From Dehalococcoidia bacterium (GTDB lineage Bacteria; Chloroflexota; Dehalococcoidia; Lucifugimonadales; GCA-2712585): a stretch of DNA of 64,000 nt. Shown piece by piece: positions 2,682-12,594 of the stretch; the stretch's first letter is position 1; every line of letters starts with the position of its first letter. The position numbers were made by a program, and so were the translations under genes. Where the stretch lies: positions 956,480 through 1,020,479 of the forward strand of contig CBDBNU010000003.1 in NCBI GenBank assembly GCA_965207845.1, in the 5' to 3' direction. The notes below the pieces were generated by a model. It searched no databases. It was not told where the DNA came from and worked only from the letters and a program-made list of their open reading frames with translations.

Positions 2682-3287
2682 TTACCCGGATTGTTCGGTG
2701 TAGAGCCAGGGTTCGGTGAGAGGGTTGGACTTCGACTCTTCGAAAGTCTCGCGGAATCTGTAGAGGGTCATCTCCGGCTCTATGGGGGCGTAGGGCAGGT
2801 GCTCCGTCTCCTCTATCTTGGCGACGATGAACCAGGGGCCGGGTGTGCTCAACGCCTCCCTGAGAACTGTCTCCAGCTGCTCCTCGCTGCTGACGGTTGC
2901 AGTGTGGGGTATGCCACAGCCCTTCGCCACTTTCTCCAGGTCCGTGCCCATGGCGGTGTGGGAGGACTGATGCCCCGTCTGTCCCCATTCCTCGTTGTCC
3001 CAAACGATGACGATGAGGTTTTGCGGCTTCTCCCGTCCGATGGAGGCTATTGTCCCCAGGTTCATCAGAAGCGAACCGTCGCCGTCCAGGGAGATTATCT
3101 GCTCGTCGGTGGAGAGGGCCATCCCCAATGCAATCGATGAGCAGAGTCCCATGGAACCCCAGGTGTAGAAGTTCCGGTCCCTGTGGCCCGTGTGCCAGAG
3201 CTCGTCCGTGGTGGGGCCGAGGTTGCTGACGATGGGCCGGTCGCCGACCTGCTCCAGGACAACTTTGGTTGCTTCTATTCTATGCAA
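2682..3287 (-). CDS. TPP-dependent decarboxylase, beta subunit (sulfopyruvate/phosphonopyruvate decarboxylase ComE-like)
   Basis: 201 aa with the TPP-binding C-terminal signature GSMGLCSSIALGMAL...LDGDGSLLMNLG. TTG start overlaps the upstream gene by 8 nt. Confidence 0.7.
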   Translation of the reverse strand: MHRIEATKVVLEQVGDRPIVSNLGPTTDELWHTGHRDRNFYTWGSMGLCSSIALGMALSTDEQIISLDGDGSLLMNLGTIASIGREKPQNLIVIVWDNEEWGQTGHQSSHTAMGTDLEKVAKGCGIPHTATVSSEEQLETVLREALSTPGPWFIVAKIEETEHLPYAPIEPEMTLYRFRETFEESKSNPLTEPWLYTEQSG

Positions 3288-3786
3288 GGGAACCTCTGTG
3301 GAGCAGCGGAGTCATGCAGAGCGCCACCGGCTCCCGGCTGGCGTAGCAGAGGTCCAGCGCGCCATCCAGCACGGTATCGAGTTGATCGGCGGTGGTCAGT
3401 GTGTAGTGGGGAATGCCGAGGATGTCCAGGATGGGTTTTGAGGCCCGACCCATGGCAACCTGTGCAATGTTGAACTCGCCCAACTCTCCGCGAAGGTTGA
3501 TGAAGAAGGGTATTGGCGTGCGGCACGGCATGCAAAGGCTGGCAATGGCGTTGATGCAGTTGCCGAGCCCGCTGGACTGCATGAAAACGGCGGACCTGCG
3601 ACCTACGGCGTATGCCCCGACGGCTACTCCGATGGCTTCTTCCTCCCGTGTGGAGGACACCACCTGAAAGTAAGGATCATCCTCCATCAGCTTGGTAGCC
3701 TGGTAGATGCTGATGTCCGGGACGTATGCAATTAGGGAGATTCCCGCCTTCTTGAGGGCGGCAACCAGAATGTCGGCCCAAGTCAA
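3280..3786 (-). CDS. TPP-dependent decarboxylase, alpha subunit (ComD-like, pyrimidine-binding domain)
   Basis: 168 aa. N-terminal TPP-enzyme domain pattern (YVPDISI...TREEEAIGVAVGAY...MQSSGLGN). Translationally coupled to the beta subunit. Confidence 0.7.
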   Translation of the reverse strand: MTWADILVAALKKAGISLIAYVPDISIYQATKLMEDDPYFQVVSSTREEEAIGVAVGAYAVGRRSAVFMQSSGLGNCINAIASLCMPCRTPIPFFINLRGELGEFNIAQVAMGRASKPILDILGIPHYTLTTADQLDTVLDGALDLCYASREPVALCMTPLLHRGSLA

Positions 3787-3957
3787 GGGCTGCCTCGCAA
3801 ATTTTATTTTGAAGCCGAAGCCAAAATAGCAGAGCAGAGGCGTGCTGTCAAAGAACGGTCACGCCAAGACTATGGGCCCGGGGGCGAAGGACGAGGTCCT
3901 CAGCCCTGGAAAGAATGGGCCGCAATTCCGAAAGGGAAAGCGGCCCGGCGAACAAAT

Positions 3958-4104
3958 CTAGGCGGTGGCCTTGCCGATACGGAACATCTTCGTGCCGCAC
4001 ACAGGGCAGACGCCGCGCGTGGCCGGCCGGCCGTTCTTCATGGTGATCTGTTCCGGGTCGTTCATCTCCTGAGAAGCTCGGCACTTCACACAGTAGGCTT
4101 GCAT
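3958..4104 (-). CDS. small zinc-ribbon protein (DUF5679-like), 48 aa
   Basis: Own translation of the minus strand: MQAYCVKCRASQEMNDPEQITMKNGRPATRGVCPVCGTKMFRIGKATA. It has two CxxC pairs and is below the 60-aa cutoff of the track. It replaces the implausible 3848..4084 ORF in another frame. Confidence 0.6.
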   Translation of the reverse strand: MQAYCVKCRASQEMNDPEQITMKNGRPATRGVCPVCGTKMFRIGKATA

Positions 4105-4354
4105 TCCTATAACCCCCGTTCTTAATTTCGTTTATCCTACTCTACATAACCACAAGATTCACTACAGTCAGAAACGAATTCACGTGAGTTTTTGCGTTTT
4201 AGGCGTGTTTTGGCCCTTTTCCGCGCCTGAGGGGTCGGCCTGTAGCCGCTAATCCACGCCTGCAGGCCTCGTGGGAGCGTGTTCCCGAGAAGGGCGTGTT
4301 GAATTCCGAAGTGCTGCCTCACCAGCCAATTAGTCCGGCGAAAACGTCAGAAAT

Positions 4355-4375
4355 AACCGGAGGTTGCTGCCGGTT
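4355..4375 (-). terminator. possible hairpin terminator after the helicase-amidohydrolase gene
   Basis: AACCGG-N9-CCGGTT hairpin abutting the stop codon, followed on the minus strand by ATTTCTGACGTTTTC. Confidence 0.3.
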
Positions 4376-7300
4376 CAGTCGCGCTGATAGACAGTTTCGC
4401 CGCCGACAATAGTCCGTAGGACTGGGATGTCCATGATGGACCGGGGATTTACTGTTCGGGGATCGTCGCCCAGGATCACCAGGTCTGCCAGCTTTCCAGG
4501 CTCTATCGATCCCTTCAAGTCCTCTTCGAAGGAAGCGTATGCGCCATTGATGGTGTAGAGCTTCAGCGCTTCCTCCACGGTGATGCGCTGCTCCGGGCCC
4601 CAAACCTGGCCGTTGTAGTCTTCACGCGTTACGCAGCTCTGGATCCCCATGAGGGGTGGCAGCGGACTGCAGGGATAGTCGGCTGCGCCGGTGGAGTTGA
4701 TGCCGTGGTCGATGAAGGACCGCTGGGCAAACATCCACTTGAGCCGTTCCTCGCCGTAGAAGCGCATCTTTTCGCCGTGGTAGTAGACGTAAGAGCAGAA
4801 GGGGGTAACCACGCAGCCAGCAGCCTTGATCCTTCGCAGCAGGTCCGGGTTGACGACGCTGCAATGCTCTATGCGATGACGCGGGTCCTTGCGCGGAAAT
4901 GCTTCTTGGGCCTTCTCGTAGGCAGTGACGACCATGTCGATGGCCTCGTCGCCGTTTGAGTGGATGCAGACCTGGAAACCGGCTTTGTGCGCCTCCAGCA
5001 CGCGGTGTTCCGTTTCCTCTGCGTCCATGACGGCCAGGCCGTGGTCGCAGCAGCTGCCAACGTAGGGCTGGGAGAGATAGGCCGTGCGGGTGGCAATAGC
5101 GCCGTCGGCGACCATTTTGATGCCGCCGATGCGCAGCCGCTCGTCTCCGAGGCCGCTGCGGATGCCCGCGTCGCGGAGGGCGGGAAAGTGGTCGCGGTAC
5201 ATGAGCAGGTAGACACGCAGCGGCAGGTCGCCTTCGTCCCGCGCCTGCTGGTAGACCCGCAGATCGTCGATTGAGACCATGGCGTCGTGCACGCTTGTAA
5301 GGCCCGCCTCAGCGAACATGCGGCAGATAAGGTCGAGGCCACTGCGCCTGTCCTCGTCGGTGTGACGGGGTAGCACCTTTTGCAGGACGGGATAGATGGC
5401 TGCGCCGTAGACGCGTCCGTTCAGCTTGCCTGTCTCCGTATCGCGTCCCAGGCGGCCGCCGTGGGGGTCGGGGGTATCGTCGCTGAATCCGGCCCGGCGC
5501 AGCCCGAGGGAGTTGAAGAAATAGACGTGGCCCGCCTGGTGGGCGACCATGATGGGGTGCTCGCAGGAGACGGCGTCCAGGTCGCGGCGGTGGAGGAAAC
5601 GCTGCTCGGATGTCTTGGTGTCGTCAAACTTGAAGCCCCGGACCCACTCGCCCGAAGCCGTAGTGACGGTGCGGACCTTGAGGGCTTCCTGGATTTCGCC
5701 AATGGAGCGGAGGTCGCAGTCCTCCTCCGCCACGTGCCGGAGGCCGCTGCTCATGACGTGGGTGTGAGCGTCTATGAAGCCGGGAAGAACCGTGCCGCCC
5801 TCCGCGTCCAGAATCTCGGTGGCGCTGTTCCTGAACGGGGCCAAGTCCTCGTCTGCGCCTACGGCCAGGAACCTGCCGTCCTTGATGGCGATGGCGCCGG
5901 CGGAGGGGGAGGCGGGATCCATGGTGATGACGTTGGCGTTTAGGATGATTGTATCGGCCCGGATGGTGTCGGCGAGCCCGCGGTCGGGCGTGTGCAGAAA
6001 AACATCTTTGCCGGGCCCGTGTCCGTTGCCGTTCAAGCGCCACACGCCCCATCCGGCGTTGGGATCGCAGCGGCCGGCCCGTTCCAACCTCTTATACGCC
6101 TGCCTGATGGCCGACTGCACGTCGGTATCCGAAAAGTCTGCTAGCCGGTAGTGGCTGATTAGCAGTTGACGCTCAGTTTCGCTTGAATGCGACAGCATGT
6201 GTTCTCTCATGGCGACTATGCGCTCTTCCTGGGCGTCTACGGACGATAGGCCGTCGTGTTCCAGCTCTGTCCCTCTTGTGATGACTCCGTGCCTGCGGCC
6301 TTCGATTTCGTAGAGAATTTCCGCCGTTCTTCGGATGACATCCTTCACTTTGCCCTCGCCGCCGATCTCTTCCAGCGCGGTCACAAGCGCCGGATCCAGA
6401 ATCGCCGGGTCTTCCAGCGCGTAGGAGCCGTTTCCGTTTGCCGCGGTCTCCTCACCCGTATATTCGAATGCGTATATTCCCGGGATGGCTGGCAAATCCG
6501 CCTGTTGGTGGGCGTCCTTGTGGCACAGGTTGCACACCCTTTCGTGGGAGAACCCACACTTTCCGTCCAGCGACCAGTGGGAGAAGGCGCGCCATTTGCC
6601 GCATCGCGGACAGTCTTCGCCGAAGGGGGCGCTGCAGTGTCCGCAAAGGTGGCTGCCTGCGGGCGAGGCGGACTGGCATTCGTTGCACATCACCACGGGC
6701 GGCTCTCCTTCGTCCGCTTCCCCTCGAGCTGTAAGCGACCATTCCCGGTCGTCTTCGGGCAGGCCGTGCTCCAGGGCGTTTCCCGCCAGGTCCAGGATCA
6801 GGCAGTTGCCGCCCTGCTCCTTGGGACGGAGACCACGCCCCACCATCTGGAGGTAGAGCGAGAGACTCTTGGTGGGCCGTGCGATGACGACGCATGAAGC
6901 GTCGGGCAGGTCGAAGCCCTCGGTGGCGATTGCCACGTTTATCAGCACCCTCAGCCTTCCGTGTGAGAAGCTGTCAATAGCCTGAGCCCGCGCAGGAGCG
7001 TCGGTCCTGGCGTGGATTGCCGCGGCGGGGATTCCCTGCTCCTGCAGCAGCGCGGCCAGGTTGTCGGCGTGGGCGACGGAAACGGCGTACATAATCGTCT
7101 GCCGGTCGGCGGCGTATTCCTGCCAGAATTTGATTGCGAGGGCCGTCAGTACGCCCCCGGAGTCGTTTGCCGCTTCGATGCCAGTCTCGGTGTAGTCGCC
7201 CGTGGAGCCGATATTGCCGCCGGCGATGCGATTTTCTTCGTCGGGGAGCACCACCTGGGCAGGGCAGAGGAAGCGCTGCGCCTGAAGGTCACGGATTTGC

Positions 7301-7857
7301 GGCCCCGGGATGAGTTCGCCGAAGAGGTGGTCGAAGCCCTCTTTCCTGGACAGACGCCAGGGGGTGGCCGTCATGCCCAGCACACGACCGGGCCACTGGC
7401 GCATGGCCCTCTCCCAGCCTTTGGCGACGGCGTGATGTGCCTCATCGATGATCATCAGGTCGTCCCGGTCGTAGTCCCCCCAAACGTCGTCGGCAATGTT
7501 GATGGTGCGACGTCCGACGGTCTGGGCCATGAGGATGACAGTGCCGTTGGCGATTCTGGGCGCCCTTGCTCCCGGCGTCCACCTGACGTTTTGGGTGGCC
7601 GAGACGCCCGACTGGAACAGCCTGCTCTCCGTTTGGCTGGCAAGTTCCTTGCGGTGGGTGAGCCAGACGGCCTTGCGCCCTCCGGCGAGGTATTTCGACA
7701 GGAAAGCAGCGGCAATGTCGGTCTTGCCGGCGCCCGTCGGAAGCTGCATCATCACCGGCCTTTCGCTGCTTTGGAGGGCCGTGAGGACTTTATCCAGGAG
7801 TTCCTGCTGGTATTCTCGCAGTCCGTGGGCTGTGGTTGCCGCTTGGGTAGTGGTGAT
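4375..7857 (-). CDS. SF2 (ResIII/DEAD-like) helicase with double zinc ribbon and winged-helix-like C-terminal region, fused in frame to an amidohydrolase-3 domain
   Basis: Walker A (QLPTGAGKT), DEAH box (IIDEAHH), motif VI (QMVGRGLR) and Cys-rich ribbons. The last 527 aa (ADTIILNANVITMDP...GFIDAHTHV...RIEHCS) form a complete amidohydrolase-3-type domain. Homology to the paralog at 8748..10652 continues 34 codons upstream of the track start. The 5' end is set at ATC 7857, 6 nt after AGGAGG (non-canonical and uncertain). Confidence 0.65.
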   Translation of the reverse strand: MTTTQAATTAHGLREYQQELLDKVLTALQSSERPVMMQLPTGAGKTDIAAAFLSKYLAGGRKAVWLTHRKELASQTESRLFQSGVSATQNVRWTPGARAPRIANGTVILMAQTVGRRTINIADDVWGDYDRDDLMIIDEAHHAVAKGWERAMRQWPGRVLGMTATPWRLSRKEGFDHLFGELIPGPQIRDLQAQRFLCPAQVVLPDEENRIAGGNIGSTGDYTETGIEAANDSGGVLTALAIKFWQEYAADRQTIMYAVSVAHADNLAALLQEQGIPAAAIHARTDAPARAQAIDSFSHGRLRVLINVAIATEGFDLPDASCVVIARPTKSLSLYLQMVGRGLRPKEQGGNCLILDLAGNALEHGLPEDDREWSLTARGEADEGEPPVVMCNECQSASPAGSHLCGHCSAPFGEDCPRCGKWRAFSHWSLDGKCGFSHERVCNLCHKDAHQQADLPAIPGIYAFEYTGEETAANGNGSYALEDPAILDPALVTALEEIGGEGKVKDVIRRTAEILYEIEGRRHGVITRGTELEHDGLSSVDAQEERIVAMREHMLSHSSETERQLLISHYRLADFSDTDVQSAIRQAYKRLERAGRCDPNAGWGVWRLNGNGHGPGKDVFLHTPDRGLADTIRADTIILNANVITMDPASPSAGAIAIKDGRFLAVGADEDLAPFRNSATEILDAEGGTVLPGFIDAHTHVMSSGLRHVAEEDCDLRSIGEIQEALKVRTVTTASGEWVRGFKFDDTKTSEQRFLHRRDLDAVSCEHPIMVAHQAGHVYFFNSLGLRRAGFSDDTPDPHGGRLGRDTETGKLNGRVYGAAIYPVLQKVLPRHTDEDRRSGLDLICRMFAEAGLTSVHDAMVSIDDLRVYQQARDEGDLPLRVYLLMYRDHFPALRDAGIRSGLGDERLRIGGIKMVADGAIATRTAYLSQPYVGSCCDHGLAVMDAEETEHRVLEAHKAGFQVCIHSNGDEAIDMVVTAYEKAQEAFPRKDPRHRIEHCSVVNPDLLRRIKAAGCVVTPFCSYVYYHGEKMRFYGEERLKWMFAQRSFIDHGINSTGAADYPCSPLPPLMGIQSCVTREDYNGQVWGPEQRITVEEALKLYTINGAYASFEEDLKGSIEPGKLADLVILGDDPRTVNPRSIMDIPVLRTIVGGETVYQRD

Positions 7858-8023
7858 GACGCGCCTCCTACTCCGCTTGATTCCGCCTAGAATATATCAT
7901 GGTAAAGGCGGCTCAGGCATTGGGTTTTGTGCCTGAGGTTTGGGACAAATTCGGAATTTCTGGTTGCCTTACTTATGTTCGCAGTGTTAGACTTGAAGGC
8001 GGCGAAAGGCGTAGGGGCCTGAA

Positions 8024-8365
8024 ATGGAGGAACGTATGCAGGACGTCAACAAGAGTACGGGCATTTACGAAGAGCGCGATCGGCGGGTACCCAGACTCAC
8101 GCCTGATGAAGCGGGGCGGTTGGGGAAGGAGATCTACAGGAGGGAAATCCGGCATAAGGTGGAGCCGGAGCTCGTCGGAAAATACGTTGCCATCGATGTA
8201 GAAAGCAGCTGTTGGGCCGTGGGGGAAAGCACAATGGGGGCGAGGGACAAACTTGCGGAATTGAGGCCCGATGCGATTGACGTGTGGATGGAGTGGATTG
8301 GCTACGAGGCGGTATTCAGCATCGGAGGTGGGGCTCCCAGGAGAACGAATTGGTCGAAGGAGTAG
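8024..8365 (+). CDS. small hypothetical protein paired with an aspartic protease (start uncertain)
   Basis: 113-aa ORF. The core ...GKYVAIDVESSCWAVGEST...ELRPDAIDVWMEWIGY resembles the small partner proteins found upstream of retropepsin-like proteases. It overlaps the next gene. Confidence 0.45.
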   Translation: MEERMQDVNKSTGIYEERDRRVPRLTPDEAGRLGKEIYRREIRHKVEPELVGKYVAIDVESSCWAVGESTMGARDKLAELRPDAIDVWMEWIGYEAVFSIGGGAPRRTNWSKE

Positions 8366-8721
8366 TCAACGATCAGCTGGAACCTGTAGTTATTCTGTCA
8401 GTTATGGGACCATCGGGTCACGCCCGAGAAATCGAAGCCGTGATCGACACCGGCTTTAACGGTTTCATTTTCCTTCCCACTGACGTGGTGCTGGGGCTCA
8501 ATCTGGAATTCATCTATGACAGTCCCGTAGTTTTGGCAGATGGAACCATTGGAAGGTCGGGAATTTATAGGGCTACGGTCATTTGGGACGGAGAGGAACG
8601 GGAGGTTCAAGCCATCGCATCAACCGGAATGTTCCTCGTCGGTATGCGTATGCTTGAAGACCATGACCTGCATGTGCAAGTCAGGAATGGCGGCAGTGTC
8701 CTCATAGAGTCGCTGGTTTGA
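8350..8721 (+). CDS. retropepsin-like (clan AA) aspartic protease
   Basis: AVIDTGFNGFIFLP contains the D-T-G active-site signature, and the size is about 120 to 145 aa. Start is ambiguous (GTG 8284 or TTG 8350). Confidence 0.7.
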   Translation: MVEGVVNDQLEPVVILSVMGPSGHAREIEAVIDTGFNGFIFLPTDVVLGLNLEFIYDSPVVLADGTIGRSGIYRATVIWDGEEREVQAIASTGMFLVGMRMLEDHDLHVQVRNGGSVLIESLV

Positions 8722-8747
8722 CGCCGCCCGGCGGGGCTGTCGCAGGC

Positions 8748-10652
8748 TTATTCGTTGCCGGTAGGGGATTGTAGATGGATGTTCTTGGCCAGTTCTCGTC
8801 CGCTTATAGATAGGCGCCATATTCCCCAAGGCGAGTTGGAGTCGCAGTGGCCGGATTTCTTTAGTTGGTTATATGCACTAGTAATCGATTTACGGAGATT
8901 CGTATGAGTGGAAGTGTCTTGGTAGGTGATAATCAATAACAGCTTACTCTGTTCAGATGGCGTAAGTTTCATAATCTCTTCCGCATCTGGAATGGGAATT
9001 AGAATGTGTTTCTGCGCATCATTTAGAGACAACGTTCCCTTAATTACAAGATTTGTGTACTTGTTCCAAGTGTGTCTCCGTACGTCTTCCGGGTTAAGGG
9101 AAATCCCCAATCGCTTACCCTCTGTCACATAAAGTAACTCGGCTATCCTGCGAATTACACTCCCAGTTTCCCCCTCTCCTCCCATATCCCCTAGTGTAGC
9201 TAATAGTGCTTGAGAGACGATTCTAGGATTCTTGTGGAGTTCTCCATTGGCTATGTAATCCGGATTTGCTCTAGCCGACCATTCTAAGAGGTTTTCGATG
9301 GGTATGGTGGGCAAATTCTGCCGTTCGTGGGCATCTGCATGGCAATAATCGCATACTGGGTCATGCGGTAAATTACACAGTTCTTCCAGCATCCACCCAC
9401 TTCGGAAGGCGCGCCACTTGACGCAGCGGGGGCAAACTTTGCCGAAGGGCGCACCGCAGGACTTGCAGTCATGGCTGGCGGCTGGGGAAACGGTTCGGCA
9501 TTTATTACAGGTGACAACGGGCGCATCTCCGTCACTCTCTGCTTCACCCCGTGCTACCAGGGACCATTCACGGTAATCTTCCGGCAAACCATGCTTCCCA
9601 GCGTTGTGTGCCAAGTCTAATATTAAACAGTTGCCCCCGTCATCCTTGCGTCGAAGGCCCCGGCCTACCATCTGGAGGTAGAGGGAGAGACTCTTGGTGG
9701 GGCGGGCGATGACGATGCAGGATGCATCAGGCAAATCGAAACCTTCGGTTGCAATAGCCACGTTAATTAGCACGTTGAGATTCCCATTCCCAAAGTTATC
9801 AATTGCGTTGAAGCGCCGGTCTTGGTCAATCTTGCTATGAATCACCTCAGCGGAAACACCAGCCTCTTGAAACAGAGCGGCCAAATTCTCGGCATGGCCA
9901 ATGGAGACTGCGTAAACGATGGTCTGTCGATTCTCGGCGTGCTCTTGCCAGAACTTCAGGGCGCGGGCAGTCATCACGTCCCTATTTGCGTTCGCTGCTT
10001 CAATACTCTTTGGGTTGTAATCAAGATGGGATGGGACATTTCCGCCAAAGATGCGTCCTTCTGAATCTGGCACAAGAACGTTGGCCTTGCAGAGGAACCC
10101 TTTGTCTTGCAATTCGCTCACTTGCGGGCCGAGCACGAGTTCATCAAAAAGATGGCTAAAGCCTTCTTTCTTGGATAGCCTCCACGGAGTTGCGGTCATG
10201 CCTAGCACTTTGCCGGGCCACTGTCGGATTGCCCGTTCCCAACTCTTCGCGACTGCGTGATGAGCTTCATCGATTATCATCAGATCATTGGCGTCGTAGT
10301 CTCCCCATACGTCGTCAGCGATACGCGTACGACGCCCGACGGTTTGCGCCATCAGAATAACCGCACATCTGAGAATGCTGGGCGCCTTCCTATGGGGTGT
10401 CCAATCGATGTTGCATGTGGCCGATATGTCGGCCTCAGATAGCATCAATTCTGTTTGACTGGCTAGCTCTCTACGATGAGTAAGCCATACTGCCTTACGC
10501 CGACCGAGAAGGTATTTCGAAAGTAGCGCAGCAGCAATCACCGTCTTGCCGCCGCCGGTCGGCAGTTGCATCATCACCGGCTTGTCCGTTGATTCGAGTG
10601 ACGATAGGACTTCCTCCAGAAGTTTTTGCTGGTAAGGGCGTAGTTCGGTCAT
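8748..10652 (-). CDS. SF2 (ResIII/DEAD-like) helicase with double zinc ribbon and winged-helix-like C-terminal region
   Basis: 634 aa with LRPYQ, QLPTGGGKT, IIDEAHH and QMVGRGLR motifs and CxxC ribbons. It is a paralog of 4375..7857. GC is visibly lower, especially in the 3' third. Confidence 0.85.
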   Translation of the reverse strand: MTELRPYQQKLLEEVLSSLESTDKPVMMQLPTGGGKTVIAAALLSKYLLGRRKAVWLTHRRELASQTELMLSEADISATCNIDWTPHRKAPSILRCAVILMAQTVGRRTRIADDVWGDYDANDLMIIDEAHHAVAKSWERAIRQWPGKVLGMTATPWRLSKKEGFSHLFDELVLGPQVSELQDKGFLCKANVLVPDSEGRIFGGNVPSHLDYNPKSIEAANANRDVMTARALKFWQEHAENRQTIVYAVSIGHAENLAALFQEAGVSAEVIHSKIDQDRRFNAIDNFGNGNLNVLINVAIATEGFDLPDASCIVIARPTKSLSLYLQMVGRGLRRKDDGGNCLILDLAHNAGKHGLPEDYREWSLVARGEAESDGDAPVVTCNKCRTVSPAASHDCKSCGAPFGKVCPRCVKWRAFRSGWMLEELCNLPHDPVCDYCHADAHERQNLPTIPIENLLEWSARANPDYIANGELHKNPRIVSQALLATLGDMGGEGETGSVIRRIAELLYVTEGKRLGISLNPEDVRRHTWNKYTNLVIKGTLSLNDAQKHILIPIPDAEEIMKLTPSEQSKLLLIITYQDTSTHTNLRKSITSAYNQLKKSGHCDSNSPWGIWRLSISGRELAKNIHLQSPTGNE

Positions 10653-10741
10653 GGAGATAGCAGTATCCTCTACAGTTGGAATTGATTCTCAGCCGTTTGA
10701 ATATATCACGGGTGTTTGGCCTCTCGGTATTGCCGTAATCG

Positions 10742-10771
10742 TTGACGGTTCCCAAAGCGTCTTCATATACT
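10742..10771 (+). promoter_or_regulatory. putative sigma70-type promoter
   Basis: TTGACG, 18-nt spacer, TATACT, about 40 nt upstream of the ATG at 10809. Confidence 0.3.
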
Positions 10772-10808
10772 GCTGCTTTACGGTAATTCTGTCGTCGGAG
10801 GGTTGAAC

Positions 10809-11876
10809 ATGGCAGTCGGCCCAATCAACATCTACGAATACGAACCACTGGCCAAGGAGCGTCTTTCCAAAAGTCAGTACGACTTCATCGCGGGAGGGGC
10901 CACCGACGAAGTCACCCTCCGCCGTACGCGCCGAATGATGGACTCAATAGTCCTTCGCCCCAAGGTGATGGAGGACGTCAGCGTGGTCGACACCTCGACA
11001 ACGGTGCTTGGGCATCAGATAATCTTTCCCGTGATGCCCGCGCCCTCCGGCGCCCACGGTCGGGCGCACCCCGACGCTGAACTGGCCACGGTGCGGGCCG
11101 CTGGCGACGCAGGCACGGTGATGCTTCTCAGCTCCGGCTCCACGTTCACCATGGAGGAGGTGGCCCAGGCCGCCACGGGCCCCGTCTGGTTCCAGCAGTA
11201 TTTCTACACCGACAGGGGGATGACGGTGGAGATGGCCCACCGGGCGGAGGAAGCCGGATTCTCGGCCATTGCCCTCACGCTGGACATCAAGACCCTATCC
11301 AAGCGGGAGCGGAACATCCGCAACGAATACGTGCCACCTCAGACGGCCAACTACCAGTGGGCCAGCAACCTGGTGCGGGACCCGGCGGCCTCGTGGGACT
11401 ACCTGGAATGGTTTGCGTCGCAGACCTCCCTGCCCATCGTCATGAAGGGTATCATGACGGCGGAGGAGGCGGCGCGGTGCGGACAGTACGGCGCAAAGGC
11501 AATCGTCGTTTCTAACCACGGTGCGCGGCAGCTGGACACCACCTTTGCCACCATCGAGGTGCTGCCGGAAGTGGTTGACGCAGTTGACGGAGCGGTGGAG
11601 GTGTACATGGACGGGGGAATACGCCGCGGCGCGGACATCGTCAAGGCGGTGGCCCTGGGGGCGCGGGCCGTGCTCATCGGACGACCTCTCTTTTGGGGCT
11701 TGGCCGTCGACGGCCAAGCGGGGGTGCGGAACGTGCTTCAGATCCTGAAGGACGAGATGGAAATGACCATGGCTCTATGCGGCCGCCCCAACCTGGCCAG
11801 CCTGGACCGGACGCTGCTGGGGTTCCGCTCGCCGCTGCAGGACGTGCTGCCGGAGGTGGGGGGATTGGGCGGCTAG
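10809..11876 (+). CDS. FMN-dependent alpha-hydroxy-acid oxidase/dehydrogenase (glycolate oxidase/LldD family)
   Basis: Family pattern YEYEPLAKERLSKSQYDFIAGGA...LRPKV...VVSNHGARQLD...DGGIRRGADIVKA. The ATG is preceded by GGAGGG. Confidence 0.85.
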   Translation: MAVGPINIYEYEPLAKERLSKSQYDFIAGGATDEVTLRRTRRMMDSIVLRPKVMEDVSVVDTSTTVLGHQIIFPVMPAPSGAHGRAHPDAELATVRAAGDAGTVMLLSSGSTFTMEEVAQAATGPVWFQQYFYTDRGMTVEMAHRAEEAGFSAIALTLDIKTLSKRERNIRNEYVPPQTANYQWASNLVRDPAASWDYLEWFASQTSLPIVMKGIMTAEEAARCGQYGAKAIVVSNHGARQLDTTFATIEVLPEVVDAVDGAVEVYMDGGIRRGADIVKAVALGARAVLIGRPLFWGLAVDGQAGVRNVLQILKDEMEMTMALCGRPNLASLDRTLLGFRSPLQDVLPEVGGLGG

Positions 11877-12187
11877 TCGCGAGTCAACGTCTTCCCACGG
11901 GGTTGCACCCGTTCCCTGATGAGGGTACCCGATTTCGTCTCTGCTTTTCGCAGCTCGTAAGTCTTCTGCAGGTTCAGCCAGAATTGGGGAGACGTCCCGA
12001 GGTATCGGCCAAGACGTAGCGCCGTGTCCGCAGTCACCCCTCGTTGGCGGTTCAAGATGGCCGTAATTCGATTTGTTGGGACGTGCAGAACTTTCGCCAG
12101 TCCGCTTGCAGACATTCCCAATTCCTCCAACTCCTCCGCCAGAATCTCTCCCGGATGGACCGGCCTCATGCCGTTCTTGAATTTCAT
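11873..12187 (-). CDS. higA: HigA-family antitoxin (XRE HTH)
   Basis: MKFKNGMRPVHPGEILAEELEELGMSASGLAKVLHVPTNRITAILNRQRGVTADTALRLGRYLGTSPQFWLNLQ is the canonical HigA/VapI pattern. Start set at ATG 12187. Confidence 0.8.
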   Translation of the reverse strand: MKFKNGMRPVHPGEILAEELEELGMSASGLAKVLHVPTNRITAILNRQRGVTADTALRLGRYLGTSPQFWLNLQKTYELRKAETKSGTLIRERVQPRGKTLTRD

Positions 12188-12378
12188 AAAATGCCGCCTA
12201 ATGGGATAAATGAGCGCCAAGCAATCTATCAGGGTCTCCTCCCACAAGCAACTTCCCCTTCGTTGACGCTTTTGGCTTTGCTATCTATAATCCCGTCCGC
12301 TGGGACTGGGGGCAGTGGCCCATCCTTGGGTCTGCTTCGTGTTGCGGTCCCGGCGCTTATTCGGAAGGAAGAAGAATT

Positions 12379-12594
12379 TTGGACCCCAGCAAGATTGGCA
12401 TATACCTGCAGCCCGTAGAGGGTAAGCTGGTGCGCATCACCTCGCCATATTGGATTCCCGAGGCCCCCGACTGGGTGATGATAGCCAGCGACCCCAACGT
12501 CACCCTGCTCGCCGCCAGGCAGATTATCGGCGAGAAGGGACTGATGGAAGAATCCCAATCAGCTTTCTGGGCCAGAATTCCCGTGAAGGACTAG
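12379..12594 (+). CDS. hypothetical protein (possibly the remnant of a longer gene)
   Basis: Codon usage looks coding (high GC3). The frame is open from 12214 without a canonical start before TTG 12379. No family recognised. Confidence 0.25.
   Translation: MDPSKIGIYLQPVEGKLVRITSPYWIPEAPDWVMIASDPNVTLLAARQIIGEKGLMEESQSAFWARIPVKD

Follow-up and report, generated by a model that had tools for sequence, protein, structure and literature searches.

When a helicase and a metabolic hydrolase are found joined in a single reading frame, is the joint an error of sequencing, an accident of gene order or the sign of a shared task? The question is raised by a locus in a 64,000-nucleotide stretch of the genome of a Dehalococcoidia bacterium (contig CBDBNU010000003.1, positions 956,480 to 1,020,479; hereafter the window, to which all coordinates refer), where a RadD-like superfamily 2 (SF2) helicase runs without a stop codon into a complete amidohydrolase of the Amidohydro_3 family (AH3, used below for gene and domain alike). 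This uninterrupted frame is a genuine, conserved gene fusion. We consider it probable that the fusion is a stable one that arose by accident of tight gene spacing, and that the two activities are independent of each other rather than parts of a purpose-built machine. The genome of the window is denoted G000, and other G-numbers designate the further genomes compared.

On the minus strand a single stop-free frame extends from one TGA (7899..7897) to the next (4375..4377) and holds 1,173 sense codons (translation 7899..4375; stop-to-stop frame 4375..7896). The fused open reading frame (ORF; 4375..7857) would comprise 1,160 codons with the ATC at 7857..7855 as its start. Its helicase core (6748..7821) displays the Q motif LREYQ followed by PTGAGKT, DEAH, TATP and QMVGRGLR, and leads into a Cys-rich zinc-ribbon region with a C-terminal domain (6034..6747) of a kind shared with G006 and G010 in alignments, termed type 1 here. 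A 25-residue tail, or linker, contains the seam (5959..6033; placed by aligning the junction with those of the unfused G008, G004, G010 and G003), and the remainder is a complete YtcJ-type Amidohydro_3 domain of 527 residues (4378..5958; Pfam PF07969, PDB 3icj and 3igh). With residues counted from position 7827, Pfam assigns ResIII to 3-156, Helicase_C to 238-335 and Amidohydro_3 to 671-1147, the last covering the whole profile (1-472 of 472) at 342 bits (gathering score 29.7, E 1e-101). Past the helicase tail the gene reads ..WRLNGNGHGPGKDVFLHTPDRGLADTIR-ADTIILNANV.., with 527 residues from ADTIIL to the stop, and the seam as a whole reads ..GVWRLNGNGHGPGKDVFLHTPDRGLADTIRADTIILNANVITMDP..GFIDAHTHV... 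The tetrapeptide ADTI stands twice at the seam (residues 619-622 and 624-627), as it does in G006, and is not repeated in G005 or G012; no in-frame ATG, GTG or TTG lies within 5950..6003. An initial annotation of the window, made from its letters alone, had described the in-frame joining of a helicase to a complete 527-residue amidohydrolase-3 domain, the ADTI repeat and the lack of a start codon at the junction, and each of these observations stands.

To see how widely the arrangement occurs, 41 genomes were searched, namely G000 and 40 relatives; 13 of the 41 belong to the same genus and 28 lie outside it. Related records are Dehalococcoidia/SAR202-type metagenome-assembled genomes. A single uninterrupted match to both halves was obtained for four of the 13 (G000, G006 at 89% identity, and G012 and G005 at 77% each) and for none of the 28 others. 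A seam-spanning search of a 5.8-billion-protein collection returned 10 proteins, of which four clusters combine the helicase with PF07969, and among 42 long helicase relatives in the same collection PF07969 was present only in those four clusters. These clusters, drawn at 90% identity, also include stand-alone amidohydrolases of 530/531 residues; ten members were inspected, of which six were distinct full-length fused proteins, one was a partial fused protein and three were stand-alone. In the collections searched, this architecture is confined to a small clade of related marine, SAR202-type Dehalococcoidia. The accessible parts of the literature on SAR202 and amidohydrolases, and on amidohydrolase-helicase fusion in an anti-phage context, contained no description of a helicase-Amidohydro_3 fusion.

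This distribution bears directly on the alternative raised in the initial annotation, that a stop or indel at 5950..6003 was missed in sequencing or assembly. The window does belong to a metagenome-assembled genome, and two sequencing runs in which 99-100% of its sampled words were found are not independent, because they share one sample that may be the window's own source. However, the same fused frame is present in three further species-level genomes at 77-89% identity, further public assemblies carry the fused protein, and contigs from two other studies are collinear with the window across the seam, one over 5003-7675 (168 differences, with a +1/-1 indel pair at 6180/6184, 4 nt apart and off the seam) and the other over 5009-7212 (179 differences, no gaps); both contigs were judged by collinearity rather than base by base, and a point stop in them would be compatible with this. 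Taken together, an artefact is hardly credible.

We next examined the junction in relatives, a comparison that the initial annotation had proposed. The same fusion occurs in G006, G005 and G012, and separate adjacent genes, with helicase and AH3 in the same orientation, occur in G008 (TAG, C, ATG), G004 and G010 (TAG, CC, ATG) and G007 (TGA, T, ATG). The sister genomes have thus retained a stop, 1-2 nt and an ATG at the very place where the window has neither stop nor start, in agreement with the suggestion that a stop/start pair was lost to give a helicase-hydrolase of about 1,160 residues. Fused and unfused genes align codon for codon, and the length of the fused linker equals that of the old tail, the stop, the spacer and the first four AH3 codons. 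The former TAG stop corresponds to CTC (Leu, 5974..5976) in the type 1 genes of G000 and G006 and to CAG (Gln) in the type 2 genes of G005 and G012; the 2-nt spacer (CC in G004 and G010) to GCC (Ala, 5971..5973) or GCG (Ala), respectively; and the former ATG to GAC (5968..5970) or ACG. The ATC at 5962..5964, previously taken to occupy the position of the native Met, instead aligns to a conserved Ile in the M-x-I-x-A-D of the unfused proteins, two codons ahead of Ala-Asp, and the former Met is the GAC. The alignment of the seam therefore suggests that a stop-to-sense change and one inserted base sufficed to create the fusion.

Separate, adjacent and co-oriented orthologues in close relatives, together with a collinear seam, place the gene among stop-loss, or 'Rosetta stone', fusions, with a linker assembled from what had been the tail, the spacer and the initial codons. 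It differs from these in that its partners have no evident common pathway, its upstream partner is a recently inserted accessory gene and its start is apparently non-canonical. As for the number of events, the fused helicase cores are monophyletic (support 99/98), and the fused genes have in common an unusual 5' end, a derived NGHGxG tail in place of the unfused (K/T/S)G(R/Q)E(M/L)A (e.g. (K/T)GREMAKN) and, in both types, the Ala codon derived from the spacer. The clade of cores and the shared 5' end, tail and Ala codon favour one fusion event. The domain between zinc ribbon and tail follows a different pattern, that of G000 and G006 being 54-55% identical to its G010 counterpart and only 35-38% identical to those of G005 and G012, which are in turn 50-51% identical to that of H2, the second helicase of the window. 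As the type of C-terminal domain differs between the fused pairs, a single origin would require a later internal domain swap.

Is the fused frame translated? Nei-Gojobori estimates of the ratio of nonsynonymous to synonymous divergence (dN/dS) on the four fused genes (dS ~1.0 for G000-G006 and ~0.6 for G005-G012) gave 0.08-0.13 for the helicase core, ~0.05 for the zinc-ribbon region and 0.09-0.12 for the helicase C-terminal domain (the latter two within pairs), 0.04-0.08 for the amidohydrolase and 0.27-0.66 for the 25-codon linker. Both halves are under purifying selection and the linker is relaxed. The G+C content of third codon positions (GC3) is 0.80 in the fused helicase and 0.81 in AH3, a match that may be taken as evidence of residence time. 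It could be argued that the helicase half is a remnant in decay that is no longer translated, and that the amidohydrolase is made alone from an internal start: in all four fused genes no in-frame ATG, GTG or TTG separates the upstream TGA from the helicase Q motif (GLREYQ), the helicase appears dispensable in the genus (absent in G003, a remnant in G009 and bearing an in-frame TGA in G007), and 7 of 8 distinct type 2 fused sequences viewed have an in-frame Met 11 codons ahead of the AH3 domain. Yet dN/dS of 0.05-0.13 across ~600 helicase codons, at a within-pair dS of 0.6-1.0, is incompatible with an untranslated frame. The SF2 motifs and Cys pairs are all intact in alignments of the fused helicases, the codons of the GLREYQ motif differ only at synonymous third positions, a putative ribosome-binding site and start are kept (see below), and near the seam the type 1 genes of G000 and G006 lack a conserved internal start. 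An untranslated helicase remnant is accordingly very improbable. The internal Met itself was considered as an AH3 start and rejected; most type 2 fused genes have this Met, but P0004 and the type 1 genes, that of the window among them, lack it.

If the whole frame is translated, where might translation begin? The four fused genes share at their 5' ends the sequence AGGAGG (GGGAGG in G012), about six bases and ATC (ATT in G012). In the window, the predicted ribosome-binding site lies at 7869..7864 on the minus strand, with a 6-nt spacer before the ATC at 7857..7855. Among the unfused helicases the start codon is ATG, or plausibly TTG or GTG. This conserved arrangement suggests that the fused genes are translated from a near-cognate AUC or AUU start. 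Public gene calls of the fused proteins begin at internal Met or Val codons, giving 1,116-1,128 residues and cutting off the Q motif; because the start-less frame is under strong purifying selection, these calls are probably wrong. We also considered an in-frame ATG further upstream (MPEPPLP-TGA), used with readthrough of the TGA or its decoding as selenocysteine, as the true start. This candidate was rejected, as the ATG lies inside a conserved inverted repeat, CTCAGGCA-N10-TGCCTGAG, and the TGA belongs to a TGATATATTC box found likewise ahead of AH3 in G003, where the helicase is absent.

Exact copies of this 10-mer, TGATATATTC, number two in the 64 kb of the window against 0.06 expected, each on the minus strand directly 5' of a helicase, one at 7890..7899 upstream of the fused gene and the other at 10699..10708 upstream of H2. 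The box also stands before the helicases of relatives as well as at the G003 locus just mentioned, and looks like an extended -10 element that would serve whichever gene comes first. A scan for consensus promoters did not flag either copy and gave no -35 match. About 12 nt upstream of the first box, the inverted repeat has perfect 8-bp arms in the window (7912..7937, minus strand), is imperfectly kept in G006, G005 and G012, and looks operator-like. An Rfam scan of 3500..12500 at E <= 1 gave no match, and with it no known leader RNA.

What, then, do the two halves look like on their own? In a search of the PDB, the ~390 N-terminal residues of the helicase align to residues 5-392 of RadD (6jde, E 1.7e-32), and RadD (NF053632) is the best NCBIfam match, although the fused helicase, at 150.6 bits, and H2, at 135.1, fall short of the equivalog cut-off of 720. 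Three reports describe E. coli RadD (YejH) as a helicase-like SF2 protein of DNA repair that carries a zinc ribbon (PMC9049331, PMC8887467, PMC10238739). Like RadD (PDB 6jde, 7r7j), the fused helicase has an SF2 core with motifs Q, I (GKT), II (DEAH), III and VI, then a Cys-rich ribbon of CxxC pairs after the second RecA-like domain. The RadD-type C-terminal domain with its binding site for single-stranded DNA-binding protein was not found, the RadD alignment ending at residue ~389 of 622. In contrast to RadD, the C-terminal third is unrelated and swappable, and the gene is accessory, patchy in the genus and joined to an enzyme. At least three unrelated types of C-terminal domain occur within the genus, and Pfam gave no match to the type 1 domain. 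More widely, the helicase has thousands of relatives, ~59% identical across phyla over the first ~450 residues and with variable C-terminal domains (Mrr_N, DUF4357, helix-turn-helix).

H2 itself (8748..10652, minus strand) is a stand-alone paralogue of 634 residues with an ATG start, 57% identical to the fused helicase over 629 residues. As the initial annotation described, it ends in a stop (..WRLSISGRELAKNIHLQSPTGNE-stop). Its C-terminal domain matched only Mrr_N, weakly and below the cut-off (E 0.001). The H2 core groups with the G010 helicase (support 97/96), its GC3 is low (0.54 against ~0.80 in its neighbours), and ~45 nt of G010-like sequence upstream include its own TGATATATTC box. Recombination into the same hotspot appears to have brought H2 in recently. 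In G007, two further peculiarities were observed. The helicase there has a single in-frame TGA at a Cys that is invariant in eight other aligned helicases, with a possible hairpin from ~18 nt downstream; this TGA could either encode selenocysteine or have arisen by simple nonsense mutation from TGC/TGT. The C-terminal remnant of a helicase (..GTWRLTSKGRELAEKYDQEYPIVD-stop) also abuts the AH3 ATG of G007, with a second, longer helicase further upstream, and this remnant appears to be the trace of repeated helicase replacement at the site.

The amidohydrolase half is by comparison conventional. It matches the YtcJ-type Amidohydro_3 enzymes over the full Pfam profile and with a visible HxH motif (DAHTH), differing in that AH3 in the fused lineage lacks its own start codon and is attached to a 620-residue helicase. 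The motifs DAHTH, IKMVADG, IHSNGD, EHCS and AADYP, which may provide the metal ligands of an amidohydrolase barrel (HxH, Lys, His, His, Asp), are invariant in the four fused genes. By sequence, the closest solved structures are the uncharacterised YtcJ-type hydrolases 3icj (E 1.6e-38) and 3igh (E 6.2e-36); deaminase structures match only the N-terminal ~80 residues of AH3. Relatives are named 'amidohydrolase YtcJ' or 'N-substituted formamide deformylase' in databases. AH3 is 85-94% identical to its counterparts in the nine closest genomes of the genus, fused or stand-alone, with synteny kept. In G001 it lies 157 nt from a flavin mononucleotide (FMN)-dependent dehydrogenase gene with nothing between, and G003 and G009 have no helicase at the AH3 locus and only weak partial helicase matches elsewhere in their genomes.

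The initial annotation had drawn a speculative link to anti-phage defence, pointing to the RADAR system and to nearby restriction-like domains. RdrA of RADAR is an AAA+-type ATPase, paired with the deaminase RdrB. The likeness is a loose one, of a nucleoside triphosphatase (NTPase) paired with an amidohydrolase-fold enzyme; in the fused protein the NTPase is an SF2 helicase and the hydrolase a YtcJ-type metabolic enzyme, outside the adenosine-deaminase family, that has stand-alone orthologues. PADLOC matched 23 families to the fused protein, all within residues 3-350, and no RdrA or RdrB model was among them. Since PADLOC recognises the helicase core only and the hydrolase is of a YtcJ type with stand-alone orthologues, the analogy with RADAR is unsupported, as is the idea of the hydrolase as a dedicated effector. 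The restriction-like domains are no more than the ResIII domains that each helicase carries, and in neither helicase does Pfam place a nuclease domain. A SauUSI-like Type IV restriction enzyme would combine a helicase core with a nuclease domain and a reader of modified DNA; the PADLOC mREase_IV model PDLC03659 (E 9.5e-24, residues 28-350) and PDB entry 7clg (E 2e-15) match the helicase core only, and the fused protein does not qualify as such an enzyme.

We therefore weigh two accounts of why the halves are joined. In the account that we favour, an accessory RadD-like helicase gene would have been inserted between the leader and the start codon of a YtcJ-type amidohydrolase gene, leaving the two spaced by a stop, 1-2 nt and an ATG. 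In one lineage the helicase stop would then have become a sense codon and the 2-nt spacer gained a base, the ATG being lost later, to give one ORF of ~1,160 codons. The tight spacing makes fusion a two-mutation event. This ORF would be transcribed from the shared upstream TGATATATTC box and probably translated from the AUC or AUU six bases past AGGAGG. Its product would begin with an ATP-dependent DNA-binding motor, zinc ribbons and a swappable C-terminal domain, and continue through a weakly constrained, Gly-rich 25-residue tether into a metal-dependent amidohydrolase that most likely goes on with ordinary small-molecule hydrolysis. The two activities would probably be independent. With the stop, the start and the ribosome-binding site gone, reversal is hard, and a chimera whose activities are both still useful would thus persist, tolerated rather than purpose-built. 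Several points weigh against this account. A near-cognate start would throttle the amidohydrolase along with the helicase, which is odd for a metabolic enzyme, and throttling at the start codon may imply a cost of the fusion or an unseen purpose; both the start codon and a full-length product are moreover deduced from sequence. The remodelling of the tail into a Gly-rich one, and persistence across many strains, could mean positive selection for tethering. As the two fused pairs have different C-terminal domains adjoining the seam, there may have been two independent fusions. Finally, the helicase-less G003 groups with G012 and G005 in nucleotide trees of AH3 and of four flanking genes, trees that recombination may confound, while the protein AH3 tree gave no resolved placement and does not separate loss of the helicase in G003 and G009 from its never having been present. 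The G003 placement implies helicase loss or allele exchange by recombination in the history of the locus.

The other account holds that the halves cooperate, the RadD-like motor delivering a metal-dependent hydrolase to nucleic acid, for removal of base or amide modifications or for deamination, or the pair acting as a defence effector. Helicase and AH3 are indeed adjacent and co-oriented at 8 of 11 loci in the genus, 1-2 nt apart where unfused; the fusion has been kept with both halves under purifying selection and the tail remodelled to a flexible linker; and the helicase family has variable, sensor-like C-terminal domains (Mrr_N, DUF4357) at a variable locus that also houses toxin-antitoxin-like modules. 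Against this, the AH3 domain is as close to stand-alone copies as given above, those of G003 and G009 with no helicase at the locus included, and the partnership dissolves when either half is followed elsewhere. Among 79 loci of AH3 relatives a helicase was found at four, all in the genus, and at 0 of 72 outside it (within 4 kb); conversely, the helicase loci of G001 and G031 (13-14 kb, flanking ORFs scanned) have a solo gene with unrelated neighbours and no amidohydrolase partner, and long helicase relatives bear PF07969 in the four fused clusters only. Nor does the hydrolase half draw a PADLOC match, and its nearest structures are those of YtcJ-type hydrolases rather than deaminases. We consider cooperation unlikely. 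Its most elaborate form would make the fusion adaptive, with a motor whose swappable DNA-sensing domain bears the hydrolase to nucleic acid, there to edit or remove an amide-type base or nucleotide modification, or with a one-gene defence effector, in either case at a very low dose set by the AUC or AUU start and spread among SAR202-type bacteria by homologous recombination at the hotspot; this we regard as quite improbable. Accidental fusion of two independent activities remains the preferred explanation.

The surroundings of the fused gene are metabolic. The locus opens with the gene for an FMN-dependent dehydrogenase, which diverges from the helicases (10803..11876); next come H2, then a two-gene module (8024..8721, plus strand), the fused gene, and, past it, two subunits of a thiamine pyrophosphate (TPP) enzyme like sulfopyruvate or phosphonopyruvate decarboxylase (3786..2682) and two Amidohydro_2 genes. 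Synteny is kept across the genus. A gene for an HTH_3 regulator lies at 11873..12247. A promoter-like site, TTGACA-17-TATTTT with a TG, was noted at 3823..3851 on the minus strand, ahead of the TPP-subunit gene; given this site and the gap of ~590 nt after the fused gene, those downstream genes may be transcribed separately from it. The two-gene module consists of a small protein (8024..8365) and an overlapping ORF for a clan AA aspartic protease (8284..8721; TIGR03698 at 66.2 bits, above its cut-off of 57.35). Neither was matched by Pfam, and PADLOC returned nothing relevant for the small protein, the FMN dehydrogenase or the two TPP subunits. The module lies between the FMN dehydrogenase and the helicase or AH3 at 8 of 10 other loci of the genus compared, with remnants in G003; G009 has five tandem copies between the FMN dehydrogenase and AH3, and G000 has ~9 paired copies with 40-59% identity, in which a protein of ~113 residues overlaps the 'DTGF' aspartic protease. 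It looks like a multi-copy addiction or toxin-antitoxin-type module. With helicase remnants at the locus in G007 and G009 and a second helicase in G000, the insertion spot between FMN dehydrogenase and AH3 is visibly variable and unstable.

Both domains belong to well-known families and stop-loss fusion is a known process, so the value of the locus lies mainly in annotation and evolution. It offers a natural case in which species with amidohydrolases of ~85-94% identity carry fused alleles in some instances and unfused ones in others, and in which the seam is legible codon by codon. It illustrates that a large start-less frame can still be under strong purifying selection, and provides a testable pointer to near-cognate (AUC/AUU) initiation in uncultured Dehalococcoidia. 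It also advises caution, in that a 'Rosetta stone' fusion need not imply a functional link between its partners; here, an accessory gene would simply have landed ahead of a metabolic one.

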